From: Owenia fusiformis
Lineage: Eukaryota
Direction: 5' to 3'
Length of the DNA: 64,000 bases
Assembly: GCA_903813345.2 (NCBI GenBank)
Contig: CAIIXF020000001.1
Location: 6,758,001-6,822,000 of the forward strand
Positions within the stretch are counted from its first letter, which is position 1. Every line of letters begins with the position of its first letter. Shown here piece by piece: positions 1 to 59,632 of this stretch. The position numbers were made by a program, and so were the translations under genes. The notes beneath the pieces were generated by a model. The model did no database searches and was not told the origin of the DNA. It saw nothing but the letters and a program-made list of their open reading frames with translations.

Positions 1-1
1 T

Positions 2-32092: not shown

Positions 32093-33286
32093 AATAAGGG
32101 AAAGTAGTAATACACTCCATTAGATCTTCTAATTGAGCTTAGAACTACTTTTCCCATAGCCTATGGGTTTGACACCAATTGAGAGGTGATAAACTGGTCT
32201 TGCAGTTCCATAGAACCAGAAATTAACAGACAAACATTACTACTTAAAGCATACAAATTCTAAAAAAATCAATTAATTTTCATTTGACTTTAACAACATA
32301 TTATCAGCAATGATATGAACCAATTGAATTTTGTCAGAATAAGGCCTATTTGTAAAAGGTCCACATCAAACAAACACCAGACTCCAGACATATGGTAAAT
32401 ATTCACAATAAGTTCATTTATATATGGCAATGCCATATTTCATAATTATTATCATGATGACGTAAACATAAATTACATATTTTATAAGAAAAACAAAGCA
32501 AAACTTGGTTCAAATCATATGGTGAAGTGATGTGAATCACTTGACCAATACCCTTCATTTTGCTGATAATCTGCATACAAAATCAAAAGCCATTGTGACC
32601 TAGATTTTATAAAGAATGTACATTATATGTTCTCATTTTGTCTTGAAACCAAACTGATTGTTTTTTAACCAAGAGCTCTCTAATAAAAACAGTCGGATCT
32701 AGTAAGCAACTTTTTCAAATAATGTTTCAATAATACAATATTTTGGGCTCATATCCTTTGTCATATCTGTATTATAAAATTCAAGATTTTTATTGCACTT
32801 TGAACAAGCAAAACATGCAAAATATCACTACCTGCCATTTGTTACAGATGCTGACTGCTGAATGCCAACCACATTATTTGTCCATATTTAAAAAGAATAT
32901 ACTGGCAGGTCAATTCTTCATGTAGCTTAATATTTTGTCACCCTCTATATTTCTGATTCTGTCTTTAATAATTCACATTGATTGCACTAATCTAAAATTT
33001 AAGATCCTTTTGTTTATGGCCTGGTGAAAATAGTCTTGTAGAAAGGTGTAATGGCACAAATAAAAAATGCACCTGCGAAAATAACATTCAAAAATAGACC
33101 CATTCTTAAATTCGAAACTCTGGTGACCAGAAATAAAAATAGTTGTATAGCACTACATATACCCTGTATGTTTGAGCTGTACTCGAACACTACTGTACAC
33201 ATGTTGTGTTCCTCCTTCATTGAGCCACACCCTGTATACAGTACAGTACATGTGTACCCTGAGATCAATAAATAAATAAATGTCGG

Positions 33287-33481
33287 CAGGCACGTAGCCA
33301 GAATTTGCCAAGGGGGGGGTTCAGTTTTCAAAAATTTCCAGGGGGGTGCACATTTGATAATTTTGGCCCAAATATGGCTAAAATCACTTGAAAAGTGCTC
33401 AAAATGATGGAAAACTGAATGATTTTGAAGGAATTTTTGGCCAGGGGGGGTTAGCCCGAACCCCCCTTGGCTACGGGCCTG
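33287..33481. mobile_element. About 195-bp MITE, copy 1
   Basis: caggcacgtagcca...tggctacgggcctg termini; flanks gtcgg/gtcga; highly similar to 38841-39036. Confidence 0.8.
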
Positions 33482-33860
33482 GTCGAATAAAACATTAAAC
33501 TCCTGAGTCTTGCAGTCTTGATGTATAATTAGGCCTTTACTTGTATATCAGATCAACAAAATATTTATGATAATGTCTTAAGATACGACATAAGCTCTAG
33601 TTATAATCAAGGAAAGTTGATTTCAACATGTATAAAAAAAACACCATAGCAAATCAGTGGTTATCTTATTTTGACAAGTAGAGGATTGAGCTATCACTTT
33701 TGTGATAAGTGTCACTGATTCTAAATGTACATTACTTCGAACTATATATCAAATGCACAGATCTCTAGTGTCCAAAGTGGTAGAATGACTATGCACTGCG
33801 TGCCAGGGAGGGGGGAGTCAGATTTGATACGGGCCTAGCTGCTGCATCATATTCCAGAGT

Positions 33861-36800
33861 CTATAATATAACACATGCCTGACTGCTGGGCTTCTGACCA
33901 CTTCCTCTACTAGCTGCAGGATTGACTGTAGCTGCAGCAATACCTGCAACCCTGAGCTTCTTGCTCTTATCCTCAGTCCCTTCAGGCATCAATGGACTTC
34001 TACTACGTAATGGTTGATTATTGGAGTCAGTCTCAGATTGGCCATTAGGTGAGGTGCCTGTAGGACTTGTCATACTCAGCACAGTAGGAGCTACAAATGT
34101 TAATTCAATATTTCATTTTTATAGGTTATTTCATGACCGTATTGCAATGGTTAATTAACTACATCTGTACATGACTATTGTACATTGTATTTTCATTAAC
34201 TCACAAAAACATGTAAGAGACTCAATGTGACTCTTTACAATTTTGTAGATTTTTGATAGATATGAATAGCCATATGTTAATGCTAGGAAACATCCATTTA
34301 CTCTCATTTGATAAATGGGCATTAAGTTGGCATATGGCATAATATGAATGGATGAAAATAAAACAATGGTTGATACCATAGTAGCATTCTCAATGCTCAG
34401 GTGCCATATTACTGATTACATGTAGATTAGCTCAAATACCTCTTTTTAAGTGGATACCCCTTCTTATCTTCTCCATGTTAGTGTCATTGAGGAACTTTGC
34501 ATATTTGGGGTGCTTCTCAACATACTCCTTGAGGAGGAAGTCATGTGCATTGACCACCTCAGTTTGGACATCAGCAATGGTTGTGTCAGAAAGCACAGTA
34601 ATACGACTGCCCTGCTGATGGTCAGCACACAACCAATGGATTTTCCCTGTTGGCAGATGACATCTAAAGAGAGAAAAAACATAAATTGTCCAGTTTTAAA
34701 ATCTGAAAGAGTACCAAAGGGAGATGGAGTCAGTTGTCCCATTTAACCTAAAAGTGCAGAAAAATGGGTAGTAATCTTAGTGATGTTTTTCATTTGACAT
34801 ATAATACATCTAATCAATGAATCAAATAACTGTAGAACTAGAATTAATCTATAACAATAAAATAATATATCAAAAGCCAAAGTACTTACCTTGATAGGTT
34901 GCCTTTAACAGACTCTTCATCATGAAATATGAGTTCATCTCTTAAAACATTATATGCTTGGCCAATATCTGATCCCTCCATCCCACGCATGGCATTTTTC
35001 TGGATTCTCTTGGCAAGTTGTTCATTTTCTTCCCCTGTTGTGAAGAACTGAAGGCCAACATTGCTGTACTTGAGGATGGTGAGAAGTCTCCCGAGGTAGG
35101 CAGTTGACTTGTCTATGAGGGCTGTAGCAGAACTTTCATCACCAGTGTATGGTATGGCATTCCCACATATATGCCATCCCTAAGGAAACATATTGTATGT
35201 AAAATAATAGTTCAGTGCATAACATTTTTGGTTTTGGGTTACCTGACACCTTCCTGAGGAAAAATCCTTTTTCCTTTGCTATTAAGGTACTTTATGCCTA
35301 GCTCTGTCACTAGGTTACTCAATATATTCTGCAAGGAAAATAGCATTGAATATTCTCACTATATTCTAGTGGGAAAATTGCATTGAAAATTGTTCAAATA
35401 ACATGCTATTTTAAAATCTGGACTCATAAAAATGATCAGTGATGTTATCGTCCCCTTCCCTACTGGCTTAACATATACAAGCAGGGCCTCAATTCATTCA
35501 ATGTGGCAATCATGTAAAGTGTGATTAAAATCTACATAGGACTGATTGTTATAATATTAAAGGGTGACGCATATCGTTTAGCAAATCGAACGCTCGTTTC
35601 TGGTGTTGCTCACCGTTTAGTATAAAAGGCCCGATCCCGGAATAATACTCAAGGGTTCACAGGTTCGAGCTCGTTGTGTCAACACCTCTAACTGTTATAT
35701 AGTATAAGTATATTATAGATCGTCACACATTTATAAAAGGATGATTTTTATTTTGACAAATCAATTCCACATTTATGGGTGAAGTTTCAGGATCTTCTAT
35801 TTGTGTACAATAAGGAAAAATTGGCATCTAAATTTCCCCATAACGTACTAGCACACAGCTTGGCATATGAAATATCCTACAAATGAAACAAAGCAAGACA
35901 AACCGGTTTCTAATACAAGGATTTATATTGGCTGTTGTACATGTATTCTTTGAACGCAATCACTCTTTGGATAACGTTTTCAAAATCATTATAAACGGAT
36001 TACTTTATCTCAAAGACAATTTCAATAAACTGGATTTTACAGAACTCCCCTTATTTCTTAAAAATGGACTGATCCAGTTGATTCGCCTGGAGCCGCCATA
36101 TTGTTTTTATACGGGATGCTAATCGGAACCCTTTAAAACCATTGTTCTATCATTATTCATTTACACTTAAAAAAAAATTGATTACAATCACAGTAACTTA
36201 CATTTTCATACTCGCAGAGAATTCTGAAACAATACGTCTGCTTTTCAGTAGTGCCATCTTTATCAGCCTCCATGAGGTCAAGGACACAGAGACGTGGATA
36301 TATGGCATGTTTGATTTCTCCCTTGTGTTGTAAAACCTCCAATAAGCGCATGAATTTCCTCTGAGCTAATTCATAAACTTCCTAAAAAACAATACATACA
36401 GTCTGTAGAAGCTAGTCGGGCATCAATCCCCATGTTACCCCAAGTCACTCTCAGACATGGGGAAATAGATGGTGATGGTAGAAGAGATTTAATTCCATCA
36501 TAGAGACCAGTGAGAAGCAAAATTATGTCAATGCAAAACAAGTTTCATTTTCAATACTTGAAGTGTTCAATTTAGAAATTGATACCCTTAAAGGGAGGTA
36601 CAGCACATGTTCACCATTTATTACTTTACCATACACCTGCTGAAAATTTTACATTAAAATAGACAAACCTGATATGAAACTTCTGTATCATTGGTTTTAA
36701 AACAACCAGAGTCATTTTCATCAGTTTTGCATCTTTGAGAGGCCGCACTTGTAGGCCTTGATGGTCTCTCTTTTCCAGCATATTTTGCTTTCTCTGATTC

Positions 36801-39800
36801 TTTGTGTTTTTCAACATCTATTATTGTTTTTACTTTCTCTAATAGTTTATCAAATGCAGTTTCACTCTTTTCCTGGAAGTTAATTTCGTCAGACTTTCCA
36901 CGCCCTGTCAGCATTGCTGCCTAAAATGTCAAACAAAATAATATTGATGATTTCAATTCATATTAATCAAATTTTCAACCGTACCATTGGTCTTTGCATA
37001 AAAACATATTTTTAAGACTCTTTGCAGTGTTGTTGATTTTTATTTGAGGTTTTGAAGCTATTTTAAATATAGTCTAATAGTATAACGATCTGTTCCATCC
37101 AAAATCATAAGGGCCATTTTTTGTAATGAATTCCGTGTACTAACATAGAAGCATTTTTTGGTTATTTTTCTATTCCAAGTATACTGTCCTGTGGCTTCAA
37201 CTGATTAATATATTTACAAAATATTTGTAATAAACCACAACTGTGAGTGTCTCATAGTAAATTTACATTGACTGATGCAACACTAGTATAGTATACATAT
37301 ACTTACCTCTGTGTACCTCCAGTTATTGGAATTTCCAACTATGGCTACAATGATTGGTTTATTCAATGCACATGCGGCAAACCTCAGCTCCATCATACAG
37401 TTGGTAGAGTCAGCATACTGCTCAGATACACATACTACCACAACCTTAGAATGCCTTAGTCCATTACTGATCGACTCAAACAGGTCATTCTGAAATATTT
37501 CATGCACAGAGCTTGATGATTGCTTTTAGGACTGTTTGGAATTGATAATCAAATTAACAAAATACATGTATTAAATTAGAACTTAACTCAATAGACATTG
37601 GTGGTTTATCATAACAAACTGCAATTTGTATCATGAATAGATACAAAACTCTTTCCTGTAAATACTGTACACATGTACATATAAGAGGTTATTTCATAAT
37701 AAGAGGAAACCTTTTTTATAAGAGGTTATTTTGATTATTTAAAATGTAGGTGTATTTTAGAAGAGCTCAGCACCACACTCCACTAAATGATAATGTGTTA
37801 CAAAGTCCATCTTTTCTCACCTGCCCAGTCTGTTCAATATCTATCCAACAATCTATTCCATTTTTTTCCAACATATCCTTCATGTCCCTTGGGTCTCCCC
37901 AACCAACAGAGCCATCTTTTGCTTTGGTGCCCAGTTTAACTGCCTGGCTACTGTTTGCCCAGCAGTAACTTATGAAGCATGGTGGATGAAGATCCTGTAA
38001 AAGGATTGAACAATATATACAATGAATATGAAGTTACGTAGATATAGAATTCTAATATGACTCCCAATGGGGCACTTTTAATATCACACTGTTATAAGAA
38101 AATTGCATCTTGCACGTTGCAAGTATTTTTCATCTTTTTATTTCTGACATTTGTCACCTCATTCAACAATGGGTGCCTGAATATGTACTTCTGCAGAAAG
38201 GGTAATAAAGAACACTACAGTGTCACATGAAAATGAATTCTCTTGAATTCTCTTCTCCAAACCTCTATCTGATGTAAACTGAGACAGGTTATATAATATA
38301 TTGGCATTGGGAAAATCCCAAATCTCCTGAACCTCATTTAGAATAGTCTTAATGTACCTCATTTGCTGTTTGATTGAGAGTCTGGGTAACGGCTTGTTTC
38401 AATTCTTCTAATTTAGCCTCATATCTCTCAAGTTGTCTCATGTTGACAAATACCTGGAAATTACATTTATATTAGATCTGGAAAACAAATTAAAGTGGGA
38501 CTAACGCTTATACCTAAATGAAGATTTTCTGTTTTATCAACCTTACATGTATATGTGTAGTTTTTTTCAAGTTTAGCCTGCAAGAACCTGATTTATAGGT
38601 CTTCAGTAAAACATATTACAGAAAATGTACTGTATAAAGCAATAATACAGGGAACTAGTTATACATGTATTTCAGTAAGTTCATTATATATTATGTTATA
38701 GAAGTGAGTCAGGAGATGTCTCAGAACTAAAGTAGTCACACTAATTTGATTCTTGTGTTAAGTTGAGCTAGCTGATTTCCCTACATTGGATTGTGGTATA
38801 TTGTACTTGAGCCACTACAACCATGTTTTACTGTACTATACAGGCCCGTAGCAAGGATTTGCCAAGGGGGGGTTCAATTTTCAACAATTTCCAGGGGGGG
38901 GTTCAAATTTGACAATTTTGGCCCAAATATGGCTAAAATCACTCGAGAAGTGCTCAAAATGGTGAAAAACTGCATGATTTTGAAAGAAATTTTGGCCAGG
39001 GGGGAACTCTGCAAACCCCCCCTGGCTACAGGCCTGCTGTATATTGAGCATCTTACCTCCTCTCCCACTAGGAGTCCAGCTGGAGTTTGTTTCCAGTCAT
39101 ATGAAGCTCCCACTGCAATGATCTGACATGGCTTCTTTAGAGTCAACTTAATATAATGGTACAGCTCCTGACATTTGGCATCTGCAGCAAACTCATCTGA
39201 CATAAACACTAGCGCCATCTAAAAAAGAAAGAAAATTAAGATTAAAATGGAGGGATTTCAGATCTAACATAATTAAATGGCCAGCCGTTATGTTATTTAT
39301 CTATACATTACATATGGCAAAAAAGCTGGCCTGAATCAAAAGCAACTGGCCATGGTAGTTTAATTACTCAAAGGATAGGTATCGATATGGTGAGCTGAAT
39401 TCAACAATGTTTTTCTCTTCTCTTAACCAATTTCAAATTATAATGCCACCATCCAAAAGATGACCATTAAATTGACGATGTGTAAAATTTTCAGAATGTT
39501 TTGCTGACTGGTTTAAGAGAAACGAGTGTTCAAAAAGTTCACCATATCGATACCACTCCTTTCACCAGCTGTTCTTAAAGTATTTAATTTCTGGTTACCT
39601 TAGCATCCTTTATTGGAACCACCAAATCATTGAAAGACCAGAGGCCCATATCTTCACGATACCAACTGAAATAATCAAAAACAAATATAACATAGAAAAA
39701 TCAAATACGTTGTCTCGTACATGTAAGTAAAAAATTCTAGTAAGCGTTTTCAAGATAAAGATTGCATATTGATATAACACCAAGTACTTGGACCACACCA

Positions 39801-42800
39801 AATGCACGGGCATTTACTTTTAAGTTAATTCTTACCATTTGTATCCCAAGTTTTCCAAGTCGACTTTCACCTTCTCAGGCTGGACAACAGAATCATCACC
39901 AGGTGGCGCATTTGCTTGACAATAGCAGAAAAAGATGTCAGCTGACATATCCCTGTGGACATCTTGCAGTTGACGTATTGTCTGCTCTAAATTGATGTTG
40001 AACTCAACTGCATTGCTCGGAGGCATGACCGCTGAAAAGAAGCAATATCATACAAATTGAATTATTGGAAATAAATACATGATCAAAACATGCACAAATT
40101 AAATTTAAAATCATTGAGCAAAATTTTTGAATCATGTCATTATCAGTATTTCTTTAAGCAAATCAAAATAGTCAAAGTACATGAAAATCAAGCTAGAAAG
40201 TTACTAATAATGTAGAAGTACTATATAAGCACATAAACATTAACACCTCCTTGTTTTTACAGTAGAAGTATTACCTTGAAGTTCAGCCATCGAGATGCTG
40301 TGGAAGTATTTACGACATTGTAGAAATGGCGCCTTTACATCAACAGCCATATGTACCAGGTGATGGTCAAACATGCTGGGATCCTTTGTGCCCTAGAACA
40401 AATTGTGAATTAAACATGAACGATTTACATAGTAGATATCATAGTACTACAAGTACATTTGTGAATAATAGACTGCTTTTCTCAGATTTAACTCTGTAAA
40501 AATTTGATAGTATTTTGTGTTAAAAGTGTTCTGGCAATATTGTTTCATTAGCACGGAGCGGTAGGCAAACTGCGCGCCTACTATGCACGCAGTTTGGAAC
40601 ACTGACAAACTGCGCGCCTATTCACAAAATGACAGACAGGGAGGACACGACTCCCAAGAGGATGGAAATTACTGAAAATACTAGGCTAGTTTTGGTTTTC
40701 AGACAGTACCAAGATGTGGAGACTAACTTAGTTTATACGTAGCACTCGATTTTTTTCCCGATGCATATCTAGTTATCTCAAAATAAGGTTCCCAAGGAGC
40801 TTTTGTGTTAAAATTATACAGTGTTGCGTCATATAATGTCTGTTTTTCGTAGTTTGACGTTTATTCAGCCCTTGTGTTTGCATATTCTGAAAGATATAGG
40901 ATTGCTGCACATGGTTTAAGTAATATAGTTTGTTTGTTAAACAGGGACAAGCCATTAACGTGATTTTATTTTTTTCGCTGTCAAACTGCGTGCATACTTT
41001 CACGTGGATTTCACAAACTGCGTGCCTAATATTTACAAACTGCGCGCCTATATTTACAAACTGCGCGCCTAATTTGCAAGCTGTGTGCAAGTTTGTTGTG
41101 TATTTTCAGAAAACGTAAACGCCACTCACTAAACCTGTCCCTATATAAAAAGAAACCAAAGTCTGACCCTAACAAAAATGTAAATAACAACGGCGCATCT
41201 TCAAAAACCATGACACCCCCTTCAGAATTAAACAAGATGTTATTTTAAAACGCACCAATGAAGAAAAGGAAACCAATCAAGAAACCAAAGAGGCGATTAT
41301 TTAAAGGTACCAGTGACTCATTTGAAAAAACATTAAAAGACTGTGAAAACCTCTTGCCCGATGTCCCCTCAAACCTTAAAAGAAATAGTACATTGTGTCA
41401 ACCCTTCCTCAATTTCTTTGGATTTATCAGGCTCGTATACTATACATGTACTGCAGTCGGGACATTCAAGTATTACTTCCTTTGGCATATGCTATAAAAT
41501 AGACTCGGAACTATTGTATCCCCCAAAAATTCAAAGATTTAAGTGAAAAAGTTTTGAATTTCTGAATTTTTGCTCGTCATGCATGCATGGTCACTTATTT
41601 ATGGTAAATAAAAAAAGATTCAATAAATATTTACACAATTTTTATGAACGAATTGTATTTATGTTGCACCATGCATCATGCACCATGTTAGTTTGAAATA
41701 AAGTAGTAAAATAGGCACTTCGGCACTTCGATGGGGACTAGGCGGGGGCCACCTGGGTGTCTTTTAGTAAGACCCCAATAGAACAAAACCATTTTCATGA
41801 GATTTTTGAACTCAACTCTATATGATGAAGTCGAATTATTGCATCAATTTTTTATTAAATCATATAGACAAGAACAAGATAAAATATAAATATGCACATT
41901 TCCAATGGTTGTCAACCATCAACCCAATTTTAGTTTTTGATTTATTTGAACCTTTTCAATCTCTACCTTTTCAACTTACTTACGTACTCCCATGAAATCA
42001 CATAGGCCTGCATTACTGATAAGTCATCGATAATATGCACGCAGTTTGGAAGAGTAGGCACGCAGTTTGTGATTTCTGGCTAAAATAGGCGCGCAGTTTG
42101 TGTTTTATTACTTCTTTCTGTCATGTTCATCTGTTTTAATACGAAATATTTTGTATTGTACGGGAAAACTGGGTTGAGATTTACCTGTGAATCAAAACCC
42201 AAGTGTTTTATATTTCTGTGAAACGTGCGATATCAACTTATGTATCGGTGATCGAAAAATCGATGTCAATTTTTTGTATTAATCTGCTTATATTTTTAAA
42301 CCTACGTTCATCTGGACATACATTTCGCTATCACATGGTTGAATCATATAATCGCCACCGAATGGACGTGTTGAACTATAAAACAATTCAGAATAAATGT
42401 CTTAAAATGACGTTTGAAAACACAGACTCCAACTTTTATGATGCAATGTTGATAGGCGCGCAGTTTGTCAGTCTTTCAAACTGCGTGCATAGTAGGCAAG
42501 CAGTTTGGCTACCGCACCGTGATTAGGTGCAAATATGCCTCTGTAGGGTCTGAATTATATCTGATGTAAGTCAAAACTCCAAATAATTTAACTCTTCGGT
42601 TTGTCAACATCTATTGCTTCTCATGCAATTTTCTATGCTCAATTAAAAAAGACATTATGGCAAGCTGAAATATGATTAATTAAAAGCTCAGAAATTATTA
42701 TCATAAATGTATTCCATTGATTATTGTTAACTTTAATGGACTAGTTGATTAGTGGTGAATTAAAAATGGTCAATTGGTATTTGATTTATCAAAGATTACA

Positions 42801-45800
42801 TTGTTCATGAAATATGGTGACTTTTTGAATTGAATGGCCATATTGAACATTCCTTTTCAAATTCCAGGTTGTTCAATAAGTTCACGGAAAAATGCTCTCA
42901 TTTTAAAATCTTTTGATATTTTCTCATGAAATTTTCACATAATGTGTAAACAAAACATTTTTTTATTGATTCAGTAAATATCAGCTTCTCTAATGTGATT
43001 GGTCAAACATAATGGTTACTATGGTAACTAGACTTTTGGGTAGGTGGGACCCTTTTTATGTTACATATTATTCAAAAGTATAACAGAATAGTAAGCAAGT
43101 TAATGAGTGTATCACATGCATTTTCTCATCTCCGCTTTCTATGTGAGGATGATATAACTTAATGTAATAGTCGTAACTATTGTCCCATAAGGTCCTAGAT
43201 GGACACAGCTGTATGTCTCAGACCTTGACAACAGCGGAATACATGTAGATACAGAAATATATGTTCAACCCCCTAGATACACTACATATTCTTTTCTCCT
43301 TTTTTATTTTTCTCTTTTATATCTTATTGAACTCTACAAACAATACGATAATGTGACCTCAAAAATAGAAAGAAGTCAATGTCCTCATGTACATGTAGTG
43401 TACTTTGAACCTCAGGTATGGGATACATACTTTTCAATATTACCTACCTATTGATATATTTAAAGTGGGTCTTGACAGGTTCAAGTTTATCAATATGTCT
43501 GCCTTAGATAACAAAATGCTATATATGTGCAACCTTGCCTTTTCTGAATTGCTACTTAATATTGTCAAATAAGTCCTGACATAGCATACAGTATAACCCA
43601 TCAGTTGGATCAATGTTTTTTCTTTCTATGAATGTCCTGTTATATGTTTAAAGGCCCCATATAAAGTGTAAACCACTTAATATCATTATCTTACCCAATG
43701 TTTTCAAAATGTAGTTTGTGAATCTTTTCAATCTAATTTCAAAAGCTTGATCTTTAAGGACTTTTTGTTAAAAAATTGTGAGTTTCTTCAAATAAAATTT
43801 CAGTTGCCACACATATACAAACATACACAGATACATCGGAATCTATTTTTGTTGAGAAATTAAGAAAATTGGTTGAACAATAAGCAAGAATTTGAAAGAG
43901 TGGTTCAGAGAAAAAAGCATTTTGATATTAAAAATGATGAGAAATTAAAATATTTTAAAATTATAAGATGAATAACTATTTTTTCAAATCACAATTTTCA
44001 AATCAACTGAAACAACTGAAAATATTATAACTAATATGGATTAAAAGCATTTAACAAATTATTCATTTATATCATACTCAATGTCTGAATTAGATTTATT
44101 TTAGATCTAATGCACTCAGATTTTCAATCTATGCAAGTAGGTTACATTTTGACCTTTTTTATGAATTCGTGTCATACAGAATTAGGTTTGGATTACTGTA
44201 CTTAATGAACACTTGAGGTGATATGAAATGGTTTCAATAACTATAACTTTTTATCTAAATATGAAACACTTATCCAATTTAAATCCAAAATTGATAAAAA
44301 TTTATATCATTTCAAATGGGTTTAAAGGTTGAAAAATCATATTACAGAATGCCAATGTATTGGTTCGGCATGAAAAATGAGATAAAACACCAGTCAAAAC
44401 CAGTTGACATGTTGACCAGTTAACATTTATAGCACAGTTGAAATACCGTATTCTCTTTAAATTGGTCAGTTATAGACATGAATTGTTTTAATGCAATAAA
44501 AAATAAAAATAATAGAGGCATAAACTCCAATAAATGCACACCCTACTTTTCCAAAAATGACATTGGCAATTTAATTTTGAAAAAAATATTTGGCGATAAT
44601 AGGGTTATTTGGACTTAATTCACTTATCGCTAGCGACTGAGCTGTTTTTTGCAAAAGTTACAGACATGGTTCTAGAACTTTAAGACATTTATGATACATA
44701 GCCTTAAAGTGGTGACTAAAAAGCTATAATGAATGTTAATTCTGACAAAAGCCTGGGTCGTCATTTATTCCTTTATAATCATGTAGTAGTATTATTATCA
44801 TCAAATTTATTTTATCTGTCTTTATGAAGTCCAGTCAGTAACAAAAAGCCTTTGGATTTTGGCCCAGGTATCGCCATTAATTTTCAAAATGGCAGTCTGC
44901 ACAATGTACAAATGAATGTGAAGGAAATATTTTCATTGATATTAAATGATGCATATATGTCCATTGACCTACTAAACATATTCCATGAAATGTTATCGCC
45001 GATATATTTACCTTTCGAAAATCAGCTGGAGTTTGTAATTTAAGACTCCTATGTATATGAGAATTTGGGAGGCACACTGTGCATTCATTAGAGAGAATAT
45101 GGTAGGTGAGAATGAGCCTAATTAATTGTATGTTATCAAGCAGGCTACTTCAGGCACTTCATAATAAAAAGGTACTGAATATCATTATGGCTAAATTGTG
45201 TGTTTCGAAAATATTTTATAGAAAATCAACAACCTTAACTTATAAAATTTCCTTTGTCAGAAGGAGTTAAAAGAAGCCTCTGTTATCTTGTTCAATATGA
45301 ATATGAGGAATGGTACAGTAGCTTAATAGTAAATATAACAGTTTACCCTTCGTACCCTTCTATAATGCCATTGGGAGATTGAAGGGATACTAGTATATAA
45401 TGTAATATCTTGTAATGAAATAAATATATTTTAATAAAAAATTGAAAAAAAAGTTTACCACTTTATTCATGCAGTCAGGACATGGTATCTGGAAAGTGTA
45501 GTCTACCCCTTGAAATGACTCCGCAATCAGACCCTCCAGGACTTCATGTATTAAGAACAGAACATTTTCTGGTTGGGGCCCCCTTACAATCACAGACAGA
45601 TCCTTGTCACTGCAAAAACAATCATGCAGGTCATCCCTCATAACAACAGTAACATGAAGGGAACCATTATGAGTAACAATACATGTACGGTAGTTGCTTA
45701 GATGCTATTGCAGTATAATTTTAAACTACCAATTACAGTCACTCAGATGCGAGTAGGTAGGTGGCTAATTCATGGAAAATAACATCGCAGAGTATTACAA

Positions 45801-48800
45801 AATTCCCTCAAACTTGAATATTGATCTGTTTTAGTGGTTCACATTTCATATTACCCTTATGTATCTGATAGTTATACAAATTAAAATATGTCCAGAAAAA
45901 GAAAATATTATCTGCCCAACACAAGAAAAGATATTTCACGTTTTGTGATTTTACAACATGGGGTCTATGGGGAACCCCCCCCCCCGGCCTACGTAGAAGT
46001 CACATTTTCAAATTAAATTAAATTTTCAAAGTTGATGAACTCATTTTAAAGCCACATTCCTAGATGTAGATTCCAAATATGACATCAGATTGACTGAATC
46101 CAGGGACTGAATTTTGAATTATTGACGTAAATCAAGATTACTTCTCCTTGAATCTAGTCTATTAATTTTGAATTTTGGGTGTGGTTACAGTTATAACAAA
46201 AATTTCTAAATAATGATAAACATGTTTAACATACTGTGTTATCAAAGCTGTGTGGTTATTCTTGTTCAAAATGGAACCTCGTTTCCATATTGCAGCTTTG
46301 TTTGAAAACTGGAAGAGACGAACTTGGACTCTGTTGAACAATCCGGTTGGCAGATATGTGAACTGATACACCATCTTCATCTCACGTGTCCCAGGGACCT
46401 CGTCCTTTGGAGGCCACTCAAACTGAAATCACATTTTTAAACTTTGATTTGATATACCCAAAAGTTTATAAAATGTAAAACATGTGTTTAAAGAAAATTA
46501 AAAACTCCAAAATAGCTGTCAGAACCGATAATGGTCACACTAAAGTTAGTCAGTTGTAAAATAAGGTTCCATGCCACATGTCTGAGAATTTAGAGGAAAT
46601 CAGATAAGCAGTAATCCAGGAATTCTGATGAAAAACTGAATGGCATCACAATCATAATAAAGATTGCACAGCCATTATGATGACTATATTGCATGACTGG
46701 TGCAAACTAATATTCAAAATACAATACAATTGGTATGTAAATTTGAACGACCCTTAGTTCAAGAACTTATTTTCCTGGAATGTACTAAAAACCCTTCGAC
46801 CCTTCGACCTACGACTTACAGCGTGTCAAGAATTTTTGAAATATATTTTTAGAAAAACCCTTCGACCTTCTAGATATTTCTCAGTCCATATGAAGTTGCT
46901 GGAAATATTACTTTGTGTATAGAACTTAAGAATCTGTCCCAAGAGAGTTAAAGATATTTAAAGCTGGACTCCGATCGGAGCCGGCGATATGATTTTGGAA
47001 AGGTTTCTAAATGAAGAACGTGACGTCACTTCTGAATCATAGCATTCAAAATAAGTAGCGTTTAATTACTCCCACCATTCACATTATCACGGTGGTCCAG
47101 CGGTAGAATGCTCGCTGAGTACGCGGGAGGCCCCGGGTTTTAGTAAAAAAGTAAAATAAGACTTTAAAATAGAGGCCACTTTTCAAAATGGCCACCTGGC
47201 CAATGTGCCATACTTATGAGTATCAACATATCAAATGTGAAAAAATAGGTCCACTACTTTTCAAGTTAATATGCAAAATAACACACACTAAGTTAGAAGC
47301 CATTTTTCAAAATGGCTGCGTACTTGCCAAAGTGTCATAAGATAGTGTCCCATGCTTATGAGTTTTCACAAATTATATATGCAAAGATCGCTCCATAGCC
47401 TATTACTCTTCCCAGTTACAGCAACTTAGAATTTTGACACACATCAAATTGTCCGCTATTTCCAATTCTGATTGAACGAAATGCGATGGTACCTTCAGAC
47501 CCTTGGGTTGCCATTTGGAAGTGATTGTGTTTTCTGATTTGCTTAAAATCTTGCAAGCAAAGGGATGCAAAACAAATAAGCTAATTCTCATTGCCTATAG
47601 TCTAAATTAGTGTGTTTGTTCATTTCCCGCCTGCCGGGCATAGAAGATAATCATTCATTTTCAGTTATTCATGTTCTTTCTGGTCAAATATAGAGAAAAG
47701 TACTTCTCCATTAATCATGAAAATTATTTCTTAAATTATCGGTCAACTGTACTAAAAACCCTTCGACCTACGACCCTTTGACCCTACGACTTACTGGGTG
47801 TCAAGAATTTTTGGAATATATTTTATTGAAAAACCCTTCAACCTCTGATTTCCCAGTCCAGTTGATTACGTATAGTTCCAACTTGAGCTCCCTGTGTACG
47901 CAAATACGCATTTTACCTGGTAATTGTCAAGCAAAAATGTTTCAGTAGAAAAATTTCTAAAAAAGTTTGTCTACACAGCAAAAATACGAACGCCGAAAAA
48001 AAAACGTATGCATTTCGTTCGGACTTTTCACGCGAATTACGTATATGTCACGCATTGTGTTCGAAATTTTTCGTCTTATTTTACTTTTTTACTAAAACTT
48101 GAAAAGTAGTTGAACGATTTTGAGATCAAAAGTTCGATGGGATTTGCTCCACCTCACGTTGCTGTTATCTAGTTCTGAAATGTTTCATATCTATGTCTAA
48201 TAAATATAGTTGTATAGATGTGTTTGTAATAACCTTTATGCCCTTAAAATGTATATATTCAGGGGGGGACATTCGTGGGTTCAAGTGGACCACTCCATTG
48301 GCCAAATATTCTCTCAAAATCAGTACAATTTTCACGATTCTGAGCATTTTCAAGATTTCTGGGCCACTTGAAAATTGTCAAATGTTCACCCCTTGATCCT
48401 TTTGAAAAACTTAAATTGGCAAAAGCTGGTTATACGAACCTGATATGACCTAGCTTGCAAGCTTTTTCTTGACGGTTTGTGTTTATTTTCCTTGTACCCT
48501 TGCATGCTTTGGATTTTGTAGGATGCAAAACAAAGAATCTACTTATTTAGTTGGCATTAGATTCTTAACTATACAAATCCAAATTGAATCAAAGTTGATA
48601 AAATCAAAAGACGGTTCTCTTTAGACTACATAAAAAATTTGACCTGAAAATATGCACGATGCGCCACTGTTACAATGTGATGGGAAAAGCACAAATATTT
48701 TTACTGAGGAGGTAAGAAACGTTCACATTCGAATGTGCTTGAATACATTAAACCTGCACATCGCTCCAAAACGCAATATGTTGACATATATTGTTTTTAC

Positions 48801-51800
48801 ATTTTCAAGCTCTAATATAAAGTTTATGTAAATAAAAATAATTATCTGCGTAATGTCAAAGAACAATCATTTAGTTAAAAAAAATAAAAAGGCGAATGCA
48901 GGTTTCGAACCCGGGCCTCCCGCGTGCTAAGCGAGCATTCTTCCGCTAGACCACCGTGATTTTATGAATGGTGAAAGTAATTAAACGCTACACATTTTGA
49001 ATGCTATGATTCGGAAGTGACGTCACGTTCTTCATTTAGAAACCTTTCCAAAATCATATCGCCGGCTCCGATCAAAGTCCAGCTTTAAATATCTTTAACT
49101 CTCTTGGGACAGATTCTTAAGTTCTATACACAAAGTAATATTTCCAGCAACTTCATATGGACTGAGAAATATCTAGAAGGTCGAAGGGTTTTTATCAAAA
49201 TATATTTCAAAAATTCTTGACACGCTGTAAGTCGTAGGTTGCAGGGTCGAAGGGTCGAAGGGTTTTTAGTACATACCTTAGTGAATTAAGCTTTTTAATG
49301 GTGTATAAAACATAGTGATTGGTCTTATATTTCTAGAGATATCGTAATTTCTAAAAATTTCGTGACATATACGTAATTCGCGTGAAAAGTCCGAACGAAA
49401 TGCGTACGTTTTTATTTCGGCGTTCGTATTTTTGCTGTGTAGACCTAGGTGTAGACGAACGTTTTTAGAAATTTTTCTACTGAAACATTTTTGCTTGACA
49501 ATTACCAGGTAAAATGCCTATTTGCGTGCACAGGGAGCTCAAGTTGGAACTATACGTAATCATTTAGTAAACTGGACTGGGAAATCAGAGGTCGAAGGGT
49601 TTTTCAATAAAATATATTCCAAAAATTCTTGACACCCAGTAAGTCGTAGGGTCGAAGGGTCGTAGGTCGAAGGGTTTTTAGTACATTCCTATTTTCCAAG
49701 CAAAATGGTAACATCTTGTTGATGAAAAGGCCACAGAAATGATGTCTAGTTTAGAATGTATCTACATGTTACCTTTGGTTCTTGTTCGGATAGGAGGCAA
49801 GGAACAATACTGACTGGCTCATCAGGCAGGGGGAATGTCAGGTCAAACTCTTCTGTCAGGCGTAGCAGCCACTCATGCATGTTAATCTTTTTTTGTCCTT
49901 TTCCTTTGCTAAAATAGAATTTTCATACACTGTATAATGGTCCTATTTTTAATTAATTTAATGAATTCAAAATATGGTTACCAAAAATACAAGTAGTGGC
50001 TGTACTTTCCAGTATTCATGGCAATATTTAACCCTAATGCCTGCAACCTTTTTTTATAACAAAAGTTGGAAAGAGGGGTCATTTGGACCCCCCTCTGTGA
50101 TTTTTATTACTTGTCTGATTTCATTATAATTGGTATTGTTGTAAACCTTATTCAATTACCTCTTCAGAAAAGTTTTATTTTCTTAAAAAAGTAGGTCAAT
50201 AAAGGTCAAGTTGAGGTCAACGTGACCTAAGGGGTGTAAATTTTTGATATTATGTGATAAAATGTCAATTATCTTTCACAATAAATTTTTGTGCAAAAAA
50301 TGCTTCGCTGCCTTAAAGGATAATCTATTATCTTTCAAATAATACTAAAATCATGGTAAAAGCTTTTCTAGAAGTTACACACTTACAAAGATAGCAGGTA
50401 TCGCGAAATCCCATTGAAATCAATGTAACGTGAAATTGAGTCTGCAATTTCAAGTTCAACTTGTTTTTGTCTTTAGCATGTATATTTCAAGATGTATAAC
50501 AAATGCCAATAAGTGATTTAGTATGCAGATGTATGAATATGTGACTTGGTATTTTTTCAATAAAATTTTGGTCGATGATGTTGCCTAGCAACCACCTAGC
50601 AATGGCACAAACATCGAAATAGTGAAATTTGGGGTAAAGGAGAATAAAAAAATCATATTAAAATTTGGAAGAAGGTATCATCATAATTCTGATACCACAG
50701 TGTGCATAGACATTTAGGAATATGCAAAACAAATACAAAGGTATTCATAAAGTAGTTTTTTTAAAACCCGTTTTTCTCTCAAATTCAAAAAGAGAACACG
50801 TTTCGAGACTACATGTACTTGGCAATTTACAGTTTTTTACATTTAAAAATTCATAACACAGTCAATAGTGGCTCGATGTTCATGAAATAAAGCATATTGG
50901 AAAGAAAATCTAATATGCTACATGTAAATCATTATCTGTCAAACAAAGCAATAATCATCTTTTTGTATTTTCCTAAGCATTAGAAACAAAGTAACAATCA
51001 ATATTTCATGGATTTCAATTTTATTAGCATCAAGTTCCAACTATCATAACCTTGCCCCTCTACCCCAAATCACCTTGGTTTTTATGCCAAAAAGTGTCTT
51101 ATACATTGTATCGTTGGCTCAGGCTAAGGCATAAATCTATGCATGGTCTGCTAATGTTAGCAACACGCGATTGTAGCGTGAGAGCATGAGCTAGATAACC
51201 TATGAAAATAATCATCGGTTTCAAGTTACATTTGTGAAGGTGATTGATTAAAAATACTGTGACGAAATTGTGATTTTCATTTTTGTTTGATTTTGTATTT
51301 TGAGTCAGTCGGCTCATTTGGAGAGTGAGATGACTCATGCATGTACCATTTAGAGATGAATTTGCTCTGCTGCCGAGGGAACCCCTGGAGTAGAATGGTA
51401 CAACCTGTATGAATGGAATGTTAGCTAGACAGAAGAAGAAAGGTCAACAGGATGCCTGGATTATGGCTCATGAATATTACCCAGAATGCAACACCAAATG
51501 GGATAAGCAAAGCAATCCAACCAATCAGAGGGTTTCCCGACGCATATAATTAGTGAAGTGAGATAGGACAGAGTGTGGCCTGATGTGCGCAGTCTAGCTT
51601 TTTGTGTCGAAGTATCAAGAGCTGTATAGTGATTCTAGGGATGATATAGCCGGAAGGTGATGGAACAAACTGTTTTATGATGGAATATTGAAGCATTCGA
51701 AGGCATTGAAGAAGCTGAAGGATTCCAAAGTGGAGAAAGGACATTTTTGGAGTATATTTGCGTGTTGAACTAGCTGTTTTGTAGGACGATTACAAACAGT

Positions 51801-54800
51801 AAGTTATTGGATTATTAGCTGCTTGTGTGTTGGCGACCGGATCTAGGATTGGCAGAGATATATTCGTGGATTATATAAGTTGCAGTCTAGAGGCGCCTTG
51901 GAGACACCTTGCAGAGTTGCAGTTTGTGAGTGTTGATTGATTTATGTTGTTCCTTTCTCTGATAGATTTGATGTATTGATCCATTTGTTCAGCGTAGCCA
52001 TTTTGTGACTTCATTTCTTCTTCGTCTTCTTCCCATAATTCATTGCGTGTCCGCCATCTTGGATAACTTCCGGGAGGCGAGTGACTCTGGTCTAATCTCA
52101 GTTTACTGATTGACATTCCTGAGTTATCTCGCCCAGAGCTGTTGTGATCTTGTTGAGAGACGTACTTACTCCCACATATGTGTGTGAGTTGGGTCTAATC
52201 TCATCCTTGATTGAAATTCCCGACTCATTTCACCAGAGTGGCGATTCGGAGCGAGAGGAGCTCCCATTGACGTGTATTGACTACTCCCAGGAGAGGGACA
52301 ACTCTGAGAGAGAGTGTGTTCCTATTGATGAGAGTTGGCTACTTCTGAGAGGTGACGACTTAGAGCAAGTGTCTTCTATTGAGGTGGTTAGCTGTATCTA
52401 GGGAGAGAGAGTGACAATTAGGAGCAAGAGTGCTTCCCCCTACGTGATCTGATAAGTCTCAGTAGAGAGACAACTTCGACCAAGAGGTGACTGACCATTG
52501 AGGTGGCTGACCTGCTAGCACAGAGGCAGAAATCTTGGGTCTAATCTCATCTTTGATTGATATTCCTGACTTCTTCTGTCTGGAGCTAGAATTCTCCCAT
52601 TGAAGGTGATTTCCACCCCTGCAGCAGAGCTGACAGGTAGAACCAAGCAGAGCAGGCAGAGCCGAGTAGATCAGACAGGCAGAGCTGAGCAGAGCAGAGC
52701 CGAGTAGAGCAGACAGGTAGAGCTGGGCAGAGCAGAGCCGAGTAGAGCAGGCAGAGCAGAGCAGGTAGAGCCGAGTAGAGCTAACAGGCAGAGTCGTGCA
52801 GAGCCGACAAGCAGAGCAGAGTAACCTAGACAGCTGTAGCAGAGCAGAGCTGACAGGTAGAGCAGAGTAGACTGGCAGAGTAGAGAGCAGTAGAGAACGA
52901 GCAGAGAAGACAGGCAGAGTCGAGCAGAGCTGACAGACAGAGCCGAGTAGAGCAGACAGCTGGAGCAGAGCAGAGTAGACAGCAGAGCAGGCAGAGCAGA
53001 GACAGACAACTCGGAGTCAGAGTGTTGATTCTCAGTGTATATAGAGATATTTATATTTGAGTTGTTGAGCCATAAAGGCATTTGAGCACATTTGTGAAAT
53101 TTATTGTTATATTATAGTGTTCAAAAGATTATTAAAATCCCGTAATTGATTGTTTTGTATATTCCTATATTCTCCATCTCCTAGCTCAGTGACAGCCGAA
53201 GCACCAAACTAGCTCGGCGCCTGTGAGAAACACCTCCGAATCCCTTATCATCGCCACCAGACCTTCTCCGAGGGAGTACGGGTACTCGGCGGGAGTCTGG
53301 CGCGCGACAATACCATACAAAAAGATCTTCAAGTTAATTTTTAACTCAACTTTAAGGTATGGAATATTTTCAAGAACAACTTAAAAGGAGAACTTAAAAG
53401 AGTTCAATGTCAATCTGCAATATAAGTTATTGAATGATTTGAAGTGCAATACAGGATATATTCTGCTTGAGAATTCCGTATTGGCACTCAAATTCGTCTC
53501 GTTCCAAAACAGAATTCTCGAGAACGAGACGAAGTCAAGTGCCAATACAGAATTCTCGAGCAGAATATATCCTGTATTGCACTTCAAATCATTCAATAAC
53601 GTTTTTATCGTGTGATCGATTGTCCCCTCCGTACCGATATTTTCTGTATTGCGACGGAGATGATCAACGGGGACAATCTCAGTAGCAATACAGCCTGGTA
53701 CAGCACAAGAACTGACCAATCAGAGGGCTTCATTTTACAGATCATACGACAATCAAATATATTGCTTAATAAGTGGAATACAATGAGCAAAGCAGTGATT
53801 ATACATACTCAAGTGCAATAAAATCACTAGGGAAGGGCATTTGTACTGAAGGGAGTGTTTTCGGTATATTTTTAAGGACATTTTTAAGTACAAAAATGCA
53901 CTGAAAAATGTACTGATTTTTGAAAGCAATTTTAAATATAATATATATTTAAAATTGCTTTTAAAAGTCAGTATATTTGATGAACTGAAAAATATATATT
54001 TAAAATTGCTCTTAAAAGTCAGTGTATTTTTCAGTACATCTTTGAACTTAAGAATGTCCTTAAAAAGTCAGTATATTTTTTGGTACATTTTTACCTAAAA
54101 TGTTCTTAAAAAGTCACTACATGAATATTTTTCAGTGCATTTTTGTACTTAAGAATGTCCTTAAAAAGTCAGTATATTTTTTGGTACATTTTTACCTAAA
54201 ATGTTCTTAAAAAGTCACTACATGAATATTTTTCACTACATTTTTGTACTTAAAAATGTCCTTAAAAAGTAGTCAGTATATTTTTCAGTACATATGTCTC
54301 AATTTTAGAGTTCCTGATCAAGATGTCTAGAATTACACACACCTTGATTGCAAATAGAAGGGAGAAAGGAGCCCCCCTCCCCCACCCTATAAATTGCTTG
54401 CTACGTCAGTGTATCGAGTAAATGTTCCAATACAAATGAACAATTGTTAATACAAGTGATTCTTCTGATTCTAAAACAGTTAGCAGATAAACCCGGATCT
54501 CTTAAATTGGTATATATATCTTTAATCAGCATATGTTTCAGCATGTGCACTAAAGATATTAAAAGCCCATGGTTTCAGTACATTTTTGTAATTAAAAATG
54601 TCCTTAAAAGTCAGTATATTTTTCAGTATATTTTGTACTTAAAACGCCCTTAAAAAGTAAGTTCATTTTTCAGTATACTTTGTACTTAAAATGTTTTTAA
54701 AAAGTCAGTATATTTTTCAGTACATGAATATACTGAATTTTGTACTTAAAAAGTCAGTATATTTTTCAGTACATAAATATACTGAATTTTGTACTTAAAA

Positions 54801-55626
54801 AAGTCGGTCCATTTTTCAGTACAAATATGTATGCTGAATTGCTGATGTACTTACGAATGAATTGCATTTTTCAAAAGTGTTTCCGGCCACACACGCTTCA
54901 AGTCACGATGTTGAAAGCGTCCATTTTTGATTGGTGATTGTTTGACAGACACCACACATGACATGGCATCCACGATCCATTGAGGGTCAATGACGATGCA
55001 ATCTCGCAGGTAATCATTGTCAAAGTATTGCACGGTTCCCAGGAAAGTCAGGAATGTGATAGCCTCTTTCATCTAGATAATATAAAGGGAACATTGTTTC
55101 ATGATTATAATGAGCACAATTTACAAGTGGTATAACAGACATGTGACTTGAAATAGCATTGAAAAGTGAATGAATGCTACGACTGGTCAAAATGTCAAAA
55201 TTGAAATATGGATCAGTTTTCTAGTTATTTTGTTATGCAGGCTGATGAGCTGAAGATTATCAAAACAAATTGCTCAAAAATCACACCCCCAGTACCACTG
55301 CCATCCATTGTATCAGAACTTAATGTGAACACTTAAAATACCAGTTCACACCAGCAATGCTTCATTCAGACAGGTTTAACTGTACATGTACTTTGAAACT
55401 AAAATGAGATAACACTGAGATCCCTACTCACATCGTCATGTTCATAGATGCCACACTTTGTGCCAAGATTTAATTCCTCCATTGCATTCCATGTGATCAC
55501 AGTCTTCTCCTTGGAGAGTCTGATCATCTCTTTCTCAAGGTCTAGCCAGGCTTGTGGGATCTTCTCTCCCATATAAGGCTGCTTCATCGTCTCTGTCATC
55601 AAATCATCCTTCAGTTTACTTATACC
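33861..55626 (-). CDS. ROCO-family protein (end of Roc, COR, two TIR domains, C-terminal Cys/His domain, CaaX); 5' exons outside the window
   Basis: Frame-consistent GT-AG exons (minus): 55626-55432, 55072-54855, 49908-49773, 46422-46235, 45609-45459, 40392-40275, 40031-39836, 39665-39599, 39218-39057, 38453-38358, 37994-37821, 37489-37307, 36920-36669, 36381-36202, 35179-34890, 34663-34458, 34090-33861. COR motifs: GEKIPQAWLDLE, FLTFLGTVQYF...VIDPQW, IVPCLL, YLPTGLFNRVQVRL, IWKRG. TIR motifs: DIFFCY...LVFMSDEF and CFISYCW...CWIDIE...VVVCVSEQYADSTNCMMELRFA. Ends CVIL-stop. Confidence 0.88.
35561..36132. mobile_element. Possible degenerate TTAA-targeting (Kolobok-like) element
   Basis: TTAA-AGGGT...ACCCT-TTAA termini, but complementarity is short. 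Confidence 0.35.
37307..37994 (-). CDS. Exons 37994-37821 and 37489-37307 encoding the second TIR (TIR_2-like) domain of the ROCO protein
   Basis: PCFISYCWANS...GIDCWIDIEQTGQ / NDLFESISNGLRHSKVVVVCVSEQYADSTNCMMELRFAACALNKPIIVAIV. Confidence 0.85.
38841..39036. mobile_element. About 195-bp MITE, copy 2
   Basis: caggcccgtagca...tggctacaggcctg termini; flanks ctata/ctgta. Confidence 0.8.
40552..42521. mobile_element. Transib-like non-autonomous DNA transposon (1.97 kb)
   Basis: About 70-bp TIRs beginning CACGG(A/T)GCGGTAG; exact 5-bp TSD ATTAG (40547-40551 and 42522-42526); internal caaactgcgcgccta repeats. Confidence 0.8.
47748..49277. mobile_element. Second copy of the same Mutator-like family nested in the opposite orientation
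   Basis: 47748-48052 is the reverse complement of about 49360-49685, and about 48905-49275 is the reverse complement of 46781-47138. Confidence 0.75.
48891..48961 (-). pseudogene. tRNA-derived (tRNA-Gly-like) pseudogene inside the Mutator-like element
   Basis: ggtggtctagcggaagaatgctcgcttagcacgcgggaggcccgggttcgaaacc resembles the tRNA-Gly(GCC) D, anticodon and T arms. The loop reads AGC, the acceptor stem does not pair, and a T-run follows. A truncated copy lies at about 47088-47139 (+). Confidence 0.65.
51258..53309. mobile_element. Probable solo LTR (about 2.05 kb)
   Basis: TGTGACG...CGCGACA termini with ATAC duplicated (51254-51257 and 53310-53313); higher GC than the flanks; internal GCAGA-rich low-complexity tract at about 52620-53005; ATTAAA near 53130. 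Confidence 0.65.
53426..53600. repeat. 175-bp near-perfect hairpin
   Basis: gttattgaatgatttgaagtgcaatacaggatatattctgc... is complementary to ...gcagaatatatcctgtattgcacttcaaatcattcaataac. Confidence 0.9.
53860..54825. repeat. AT-rich degenerate tandem repeat (about 45-50-bp unit) with an orientation switch near 53940
   Basis: aaaagtcagtatatttttcagtacatttttgtacttaaaaatgtcctt-like units recur; interrupted at about 54295-54570. Confidence 0.75.
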
Positions 55627-56094
55627 CTGCAACATGAGAAGAGATTGTCTTTACTCTATATACATAATACAGTAATCTCCCAAGCATCAAAGCAAGTGGG
55701 CGCAGTACCCACCTGAGATTTTGAAAATAAGCTTGGATCCACCTGAAAATCCATTTGAACCCAATTGAAAATGAGAAAAAAAATCATGAAAAATGACTTT
55801 GTTCAACTGGCAATGATTCAACAGAAATTGATTAGAATTTAAAAACATAGATGGCATTACAGTCCTTCCTCCCATTAAAACCATTTACACATATAAATAA
55901 TCAGCACGTTTTGACCAATTTTGGTCTGAGTTATGCAGTAGAGATAATTTTTGAAAAACAACATTTCAATGATTCAAAATGTGTTCACGTTTGATACATT
56001 TCACTGTACTATACACAAATATATATCGAGGTCATTGGATTCCAGGACAGTATACTTTCAACAGTTAAAGCATTTGGATTGAGTTTTCAAAATC

Positions 56095-58577: not shown

Positions 58578-58581
58578 TTAA

Positions 58582-59388: not shown

Positions 59389-59632
59389 TTAAGTCAGATT
59401 TAAAAAAGTATTATCTACACACGTATTAAATTAAACTGTATAACATTTAGCTATATGTGCTTTGCTCTGTCAAAATCGCCAATTTCTCGGAAACCGAGCG
59501 AACTTGAGAAATGGCGATGATAGGTCAAATAGGCATTATGGATATGCATAAAATGAATGTGAATATGACTCTATACGAATAGCAGTTTTAATTTGTGCAG
59601 CCAATGATACTTTTTGTCAAATTTTATAGAAT

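Follow-up and report, generated by a model that had tools for sequence, protein, structure and literature searches.

Results

Gene structure and orthologue

We examined a 64,000-nucleotide stretch of the Owenia fusiformis genome (contig CAIIXF020000001.1; hereafter the window). The region is AT-rich (GC 0.32–0.43) and has the look of an animal chromosome, with short open stretches lying between repeat-rich introns. On its minus strand, from 55626 down to 33861, lie the final 17 exons of an annelid gene that is intact and encodes a ROCO protein without a kinase; they specify 1019 residues. Translations of the minus-strand open stretches between 55650 and 33861 resemble COR and TIR sequence, and an exon model in which every in-frame GT/GC..AG pairing between neighbouring exon cores was scored, and doubtful sites were read directly, joins them into 3060 nt with a single open frame of 1019 codons plus the terminal stop. 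All 16 introns are GT..AG with acceptors behind pyrimidine-rich tracts, and no in-frame stop, start context or phase conflict is found at any of the 16 junctions. The encoded residues run from the end of a Roc domain through COR-A, COR-B with a C-x2-C...C-x4-H element, a first TIR domain (TIR1), a helical linker, a second TIR domain (TIR2), a charged linker and a Cys/His domain to a CaaX tail. A preliminary description of the same DNA had drawn 17 exons spliced in frame between these two outer positions, and the model bears this out at every intron and in one frame.

A word-index search with one open stretch of the window returned two proteins of the brachiopod Lingula anatina, P0002 (1197 residues) and P0003 (1338 residues, partial), together with P0001, an unnamed fragment of 179 residues. 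P0003 is Lingula LOC106160503; the record of P0002 is named 'probable serine/threonine-protein kinase roco5', which, to judge from a Pfam content without a kinase, is a transferred label. In tblastn, P0003 gives 18 matches to the window, 14 of which follow one another in order along the minus strand (55644 to 34588) and span P0003 residues 298–1200, the remaining four being one cross-match of Lingula TIR2 to window TIR1 (expectation value, E, 0.032) and three weak strays (E 1.5–9.3). Alignment of the spliced translation with P0003 begins near residue 304 and extends to the C-terminal residue, with 429 of 982 aligned residues identical (43.7%), and this level of identity to a brachiopod orthologue argues for purifying selection. 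Identity to Lingula is 62% in COR-B, 55% over the Roc end and COR-A, 53% in TIR2, 40% in TIR1, 39% in the C-terminal domain and 23–33% in the linkers and tail. The two genes share all parts in the same order, from the Roc end to the CaaX box in which both terminate, and they differ in phylum, in a 20-residue insert within the Lingula C-terminal domain, and in the box itself, which reads CVIM in Lingula and CVIL in the window.

The Roc-COR core

Pfam places LRR, Roc, COR-A, COR-B and two TIR_2 stretches on the Lingula proteins. The Lingula Roc domain matches Pfam Roc at E 2.9e-21, with visible P-loop, DxxG and [NT][KR]xD positions, and in PDB it matches the solved Roco chain 4wnr_A (1.8e-40), LRRK2 (5.4e-39) and LRRK1 (4.9e-27), in alignments where GxGxAGKTSLL, WDFxGQ and the TRAD/NKID position can be seen; the bit scores of the 4wnr chain (141), LRRK2 (136) and 6hlu ('Rab family protein', 127) do not separate bacterial from animal ROCOs. 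What the window holds of Roc is the last helix, in exon 1, the strong acceptor of which lies 24 bases past an in-frame stop. The LRR and Roc domains are thus known for Lingula, whereas those of the Owenia gene are not seen in the window, and from the orthologue we infer that its missing front consists of LRR and, after it, a Roc G-domain whose G1, G3 and G4 motifs are intact.

The window's own sequence was scanned against Pfam as 15 stop-to-stop open reading frames (ORFs) taken as exons, plus the ORF of a neighbouring UGT gene; exons 8 and 17 were left out, and the ORF given for exon 10 was in the wrong frame. COR-A and COR-B are recognized on these exons (COR-A 1.3e-15, COR-B 1.5e-12 and 4.2e-9), and both models match over their full length in the Lingula orthologue. 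Nine of the 15 exon ORFs match no family at E ≤ 0.1, among them the three of TIR1 that were scanned and the three that encode the C-terminal domain. All four residues of the C-x2-C...C-x4-H element are conserved between the window and Lingula, and the element falls inside the end of the Lingula COR-B match (to model position 142 of 145). No protein kinase family is found by Pfam on the window exons scanned, nor in P0002 or P0003, and the position after COR is taken by TIR.

These results agree with the architecture that the preliminary description had proposed. COR is confirmed by profile, the Cys/His segment that it placed after COR is real and belongs to the end of COR-B, the lack of a kinase holds both for the part in the window and for the Lingula protein, and the union of COR and TIR in one protein is upheld at the level of predicted protein by the orthologue. 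The end of Roc is present as well, reduced to its last helix (exon 1, with a tblastn match to P0003 298–378).

Tandem TIR domains

TIR2 is recognized on the ORF of exon 12, which scores 32.6 bits against TIR_2 (E 1.3e-7, cut-off 28) and 22.5 bits against TIR (E 1.1e-4, cut-off 21.3). For TIR1, Lingula P0002 residues 969–1093 cover TIR_2 model positions 2–121 of 122 and the window is 40% identical over this stretch; the window domain draws its support through the orthologue, since the TIR1 exons scanned give no Pfam match. Of the two TIR domains claimed beforehand, profile search therefore confirms TIR2 on its own exons, while TIR1 is carried by the Lingula TIR_2 match.

A glutamate is kept in both TIR domains of both species, within KCQEL in TIR1 and NCMMEL in TIR2. 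When the TIR2 exon is compared with PDB, all six matches are plant TIR proteins, aligned at S..C..EL, one of which is named ADP-ribosyl cyclase/cyclic ADP-ribose hydrolase; NCMMEL aligns with S.WCL.EL of four plant TIR chains, and KCQEL occupies the same place in TIR1. We take the glutamate of S..C..EL to be the catalytic one of TIR domains that cleave nicotinamide adenine dinucleotide (NAD+).

The C-terminal domain and tail

Between the second linker and the tail, about 230 residues encoded by exons 14–16 form a domain that is conserved between annelid and brachiopod, with conserved Cys/His positions in ..LCVLD.., C-x3/4-C-EYE-x-GWH and C-x-LP-x-GKI-x-WLC-x2-H. The preliminary description had pointed to a domain with LCEY..GWH and HWLCADH motifs, and we find it conserved in Lingula and without a detectable relative in the searches that follow. 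Exon 15, compared with 1.84 billion representatives, gives one match (E 1.2e-4), to a repetitive protein of 3688 residues, which we judge to be chance. Word-index searches with Lingula residues 985–1215 recover the query alone among 435 candidates and, with the same region as a profile and 'longer' lengths, P0003 alone among 5153. The domain has no usable match in the ESM Atlas; at E ≤ 10, Pfam offers sub-threshold ACT_5, Vac_Fusion and DmmA-like_N only, and a PDB profile search yields two de novo designed proteins at E 0.025 and one at 1.6, which are meaningless. An hhalign comparison with the rest of P0002 gives a probability of 0.2%, and a metagenome scan with exon 16 gives 163 pattern matches, none of which was confirmed. 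An AlphaFold2 model of the domain from a four-row alignment is unusable (mean predicted local distance difference test, pLDDT, 40.0; predicted template modelling score, pTM, 0.30). The sequence is most simply read as a conserved orphan domain, probably metal-binding.

The last four residues before the stop codon (33861–33863) are CVIL, and Lingula has CVIM at the same place, after a basic stretch. By their sequence these are CaaX prenylation boxes, that is, predicted lipid anchors; as a rule, a final Leu leads to geranylgeranylation and a final Met to farnesylation. Two features go further than the preliminary description, namely the CaaX box shared with Lingula and the orphan domain before the tail.

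Exons, repeats and neighbouring features

The exons are collected in Table 1. A candidate short first exon at 55713–55884 was dropped, its phase being incompatible with exon 1, and the ORF at 38159–38398 was ruled out as the inter-TIR linker exon, its frame differing from that of the tblastn match. The ORF around exon 9 looks longer than the exon because of an adjoining dispersed repeat. Two copies of this repeat, at 38870–39050 and 33014–33547 in minus-strand reading, yield similar pseudo-peptides, and RNA and contig depth are very high over the copy beside exon 9, which has loose ends at 38841, 38871 and 39004.

Table 1. Exons of the ROCO gene in the window and the neighbouring UGT ORF, with the evidence for each
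Feature	Coordinates	Strand	Content and evidence
Exon 1	55432..55626	-	last Roc helix and COR-A start; acceptor ttgcag|GGT; tblastn to P0003 298–378, E 1.8e-9; alone without Pfam match
Exon 2	54855..55072	-	COR-A; Pfam COR-A 1.3e-15, model positions 42–106 (ORF 54851–55072); donor GTAAGT
Exon 3	49773..49908	-	COR-A end; Pfam COR-A 1e-4, model positions 108–143, below cut-off (ORF 49746–49922); tblastn 74% identity
Exon 4	46235..46422	-	COR-B start; Pfam COR-B 1.5e-12 (ORF 46162–46428); tblastn E 5.7e-21
Exon 5	45459..45609	-	COR-B middle with CPDC pair; Pfam COR-B 4.2e-9 (ORF 45390–45704); CPDC kept in Lingula
Exon 6	40275..40392	-	COR-B end with conserved C-x4-H; tblastn E 1.6e-5
Exon 7	39836..40031	-	linker and first strand region of TIR1; tblastn to P0003 625–687, E 6.7e-9; alone without Pfam match
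Exon 8	39599..39665	-	TIR1 middle; tblastn E 0.003; sole in-frame junctions found
Exon 9	39057..39218	-	TIR1 second half, KCQEL motif; tblastn E 3.3e-8; cross-match to Lingula TIR2, E 0.032; alone without Pfam or PDB match
Exon 10	38358..38453	-	inter-TIR helical linker; ttccag|GTA ... GAG|gtacat; tblastn E 1.2 only; fits Lingula linker in alignment
Exon 11	37821..37994	-	TIR2 first half; tblastn E 2.8e-16; Pfam TIR_2 0.032, below cut-off (ORF 37767–38033)
Exon 12	37307..37489	-	TIR2 second half, NCMMEL motif; Pfam TIR_2 1.3e-7 and TIR 1.1e-4 (ORF 37283–37525); weak plant-TIR PDB matches
Exon 13	36669..36920	-	charged, poorly conserved linker; open frame and junctions; 26% identity to Lingula
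Exon 14	36202..36381	-	C-terminal domain part 1 (..LCVLD.., ..ILCEYE); 44% identical to Lingula; no family
Exon 15	34890..35179	-	C-terminal domain part 2 (GWH.., helices); 30% identical to Lingula; RNA reads with single-nucleotide polymorphisms (SNPs)
Exon 16	34440..34663	-	C-terminal domain part 3 (C..LP.GKI.WLC..H); 50% identical to Lingula; tblastn E 3.5e-6; RNA reads with SNPs
Exon 17	33861..34090	-	low-complexity tail, CVIL then stop codon (33861–33863)
UGT ORF	56083..57693	+	intact, intron-less, 536 codons; Pfam UDPGT 2.4e-87, model positions 2–495 of 499

Three raw RNA runs (same species label) and one contig run were mapped on 33800–53799. Exon bins without abundant repeat have an RNA depth of about 0.2–2, nearly all with the first mate on the plus strand, and repeat-free intron bins (43805–45138 and 50475–51808) have a depth of 0–0.3, coverage that fits weak minus-strand transcription. 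The bins of high depth, at 35134–36467, 38469–39802 and 53143–53799, are repeats. Within intron 12, at about 37100–37120, depth reaches 8–18, mostly with the first mate on the plus strand and far above exon depth, and at 37107 an A>G difference is present in 34 of 35 reads from three RNA runs; no Rfam family lies there, and the signal could come from a repeat that is expressed elsewhere, from an RNA hosted by the intron or from an exon missing in annotation.

Intron 2 contains, at 52646–53006, a GC-richer, degenerate AGCAG-type tandem array (period 5, about 74 copies, 64% matches) that yields long Leu/Ser/Cys-rich minus-strand ORFs. At 53380–53760, high coverage coincides with RNA joints of the 'opposite strands' and 'goes back' kinds and with near-identical peptides on both strands; this looks like an inverted-repeat element, possibly similar to a miniature inverted-repeat transposable element. 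Farther up, where upstream ROCO exons might be expected, lie tandem arrays of 135–173 bp in 2–3 copies (59677–60383) and a 162 bp array of 5.6 copies with 87% matches (62099–63004). Elsewhere in the window we note by eye the end of a GPCR-like ORF (1–700, plus strand), an exon with a phage-type RNA polymerase-like motif (2494–2853, minus strand) and a RING-finger coiled-coil ORF pair (24731–27038, plus strand). Rfam finds zero families anywhere in the window.

Discussion

Proposed mechanism

Roc-COR modules are best known from LRRK2, where they control a kinase, and TIR domains provide the output in Toll signalling, SARM1, plant NLRs and bacterial defence. In Roco proteins, dimer and monomer alternate as the nucleotide state changes, and TIR domains act only once assembled. 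SARM1 offers a parallel in that its TIR domain, with the glutamate at the catalytic position, acts when gathered by an oligomerising, ligand-controlled module; unlike the window gene, it has ARM and SAM domains, a single TIR, no GTPase and no CaaX box. The window gene has the Roc-COR-A-COR-B core of the vertebrate proteins LRRK2, LRRK1, DAPK1 and MFHAS1, and differs from them in having no kinase, WD40, death domain or ankyrin and in carrying TIR domains at the output position; MFHAS1 is itself an LRR-Roc-COR protein without a kinase.

From this domain architecture a GTPase-switched TIR output is a reasonable inference. The interpretation to which we give slightly better than even credence is that of a kinase-less ROCO-tandem-TIR protein, anchored by a prenyl group, in which Roc-COR would gate the assembly of the TIR domains, with an enzymatic output favoured. 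A C-terminal geranylgeranyl group would hold the protein on a membrane, where the LRR would sense a ligand or a state of the cell; Roc-COR would then shift between dimer and monomer with the bound nucleotide, like other Roco proteins, and the TIR domains, two per chain and four per dimer, would be brought into the head-to-tail contacts needed for action. By analogy, its role is likely to lie in innate-immune or cell-death signalling.

As to what the TIR domains put out, cleavage of NAD+ is favoured over a pure adaptor role, at somewhat short of even confidence, because the glutamate is kept in both TIR domains and because TIR_2 fits better than the profile of TLR/IL-1R-type TIR domains; the glutamate alone cannot settle the matter. 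It is rather unlikely, in our estimate, that the TIR domains of the same protein are instead non-enzymatic adaptors, drawing other TIR proteins, MyD88-like or not, to a platform on the membrane, with Roc-COR gating the scaffold. An adaptor would be in keeping with a survey of Aplysia that places ROC-COR proteins together with TIR proteins of the TLR-like and MyD88-like kinds and puts forward a 'GTPase TLR signaling cascade' (PMC9334734), and with the account of invertebrate ecTIR-DC proteins, which are hypothesised to be adaptors or regulators (PMC6321704). The membrane anchor, too, suits a receptor-proximal platform. The higher score of exon 12 against TIR_2 (32.6 bits) than against the TLR-type TIR profile (22.5 bits), the restriction of its PDB matches to plant TIR domains, and the glutamate kept in both domains all speak for an enzyme rather than an adaptor; none is decisive.

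Points against the proposal and competing gene models

Several observations weigh against a prenyl-anchored, GTP-gated TIR enzyme encoded at this locus. The PDB matches of the TIR2 exon are weak (E 0.47–0.95), the exon 7 and exon 9 ORFs of TIR1 match no Pfam family at E ≤ 0.1 and exon 9 matches nothing in PDB, and TIR domains of TLRs, which are not known to be NADases, also keep the glutamate, so the residue is no proof of activity. Outside the CaaX box the alignment of the tails is not significant, its score of 44 being reached by 16 of 500 shuffles, and because the rest of the tail aligns poorly the case for the CaaX box is made by where it stands and by its own conservation. The link to immunity comes from the domains of the gene only. 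A Roc G-domain appears only in the orthologue, the part of this copy in the window being without it, and tblastn finds nothing for P0003 residues 1–297 (LRR and Roc) in 55651–64000. Immediately upstream of the ROCO exons, moreover, the opposite strand carries the UGT ORF, with tandem repeats following it, and none of the gene's splice joints is among the RNA joints listed (15 of 106).

The lack of a Roc or LRR match upstream, the intact opposite-strand UGT ORF and the very low RNA depth would all be accounted for by a 5'-truncated remnant or partial duplicate that lacks its LRR and Roc exons, with the UGT gene marking the end of the locus, and that yields no working GTPase protein. We consider this improbable, as all 17 exons are open with canonical sites and the identity to the brachiopod orthologue speaks for purifying selection; exon 1, moreover, begins at a strong acceptor in mid-domain and so needs an upstream exon. 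Since the gene already contains introns of 5–6 kb, an intron that exceeds 8.4 kb and encloses another gene is plausible, and, because exon 1 starts inside a domain, all exons are intact and such introns are already present, a long ROCO intron in which the UGT gene is possibly nested is more likely than a copy without its front. With none of the gene's joints among those listed, and thus none that bridges the 5-kb intron from exon 5 (45459) to exon 6 (40392), the RNA does not prove the model or a single COR-to-TIR transcript. That the COR exons and the TIR exons are two neighbouring genes or transcripts, wrongly joined in the model, is nonetheless very improbable in view of the two Lingula protein records that join COR and TIR in one chain, of a Lingula COR-B match that spans residues encoded by exons 5 and 6, and of the clean frame and phase at all 16 junctions.

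Relation to known ROCO-TIR proteins

The kinase-less ROCO-tandem-TIR protein favoured here belongs to a kind that is already catalogued. The Aplysia survey reports ROC-COR and TIR within one protein, in TLR-like, MyD88-like and TIRDC proteins with ROCO domains, and its authors raise the idea of a 'novel GTPase TLR signaling cascade' (PMC9334734); TIR is among the domains listed for Trichoplax ROC-COR proteins (PMC4104024), and PMC11378527 gives a TPR-ROCO-TIR protein from a red alga and puts the ROCO domain combinations of animals at about forty. Invertebrate-wide 'ecTIR-DC' classes are cited in PMC6321704 to Gerdol et al. 2017. Among bacteria, the analysis of Kaur, Iyer, Burroughs and Aravind (2021, PMC8195603) counts TIR among at least 24 C-terminal domains of LRR-AP-GTPase-COR proteins, which are predicted to be counter-invader systems.

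As described in these sources, the animal proteins resemble the window gene in combining Roc-COR and TIR in one protein, in having no vertebrate counterpart and in a function that is only guessed. The Aplysia examples differ in carrying Mbt, EF-hand, Death or NHR domains, a comparison made by description, and the available survey descriptions of animal ROC-COR-TIR proteins make no mention of tandem TIR domains together with a Cys/His domain and a CaaX box. The prokaryotic LRR-Roc-COR-effector proteins share the LRR sensor, the Roc-COR switch and a C-terminal slot able to hold TIR; the window gene differs in being a spliced animal gene with tandem TIR domains, an orphan domain and a prenylation box. 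In the literature searched, no paper combines ROCO, 'TIR domain' and NADase, and the two papers there that contain ROCO, TIR and prenylation are, judged by title and abstract, reviews on other subjects. The preliminary description had called the system likely uncharacterised in animals, which stands for bench work, of which the literature searched has none, and does not stand for the architecture, which the Aplysia and Trichoplax papers already record (PMC9334734, PMC4104024). The window gene is thus a well-resolved added member of this kind, with the tandem TIR, the orphan domain and the CaaX box as its particular features.

Significance

A bolder conjecture, which we think unlikely though worth stating, is that lophotrochozoans have kept a sensor that is anchored in the membrane, switched by GTP and able to cleave NAD+, and that works in the manner of the predicted bacterial LRR-Roc-COR-(Zn)-TIR defence proteins. 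By this analogy, engagement of the LRR would release the four TIR domains that the prenylated dimer had kept apart, the tandem TIR domains would make a composite active site, and the orphan domain would read or deliver the signal at the membrane. Were this so, animals would possess an immune receptor whose nucleotide switch is made of Roc-COR in place of NACHT/NB-ARC.

Through membrane localisation, the CaaX box shared by the two species offers an easy starting point for experiments, and structural studies could turn to the orphan domain that annelid and brachiopod have in common. To a family catalogued in surveys the locus contributes a single well-defined gene model, and if the Roc-COR switch does control TIR assembly, the family would constitute a third animal class of nucleotide-gated immune or cell-death sensor beside NLRs and Apaf-1, of a design shared with bacteria.

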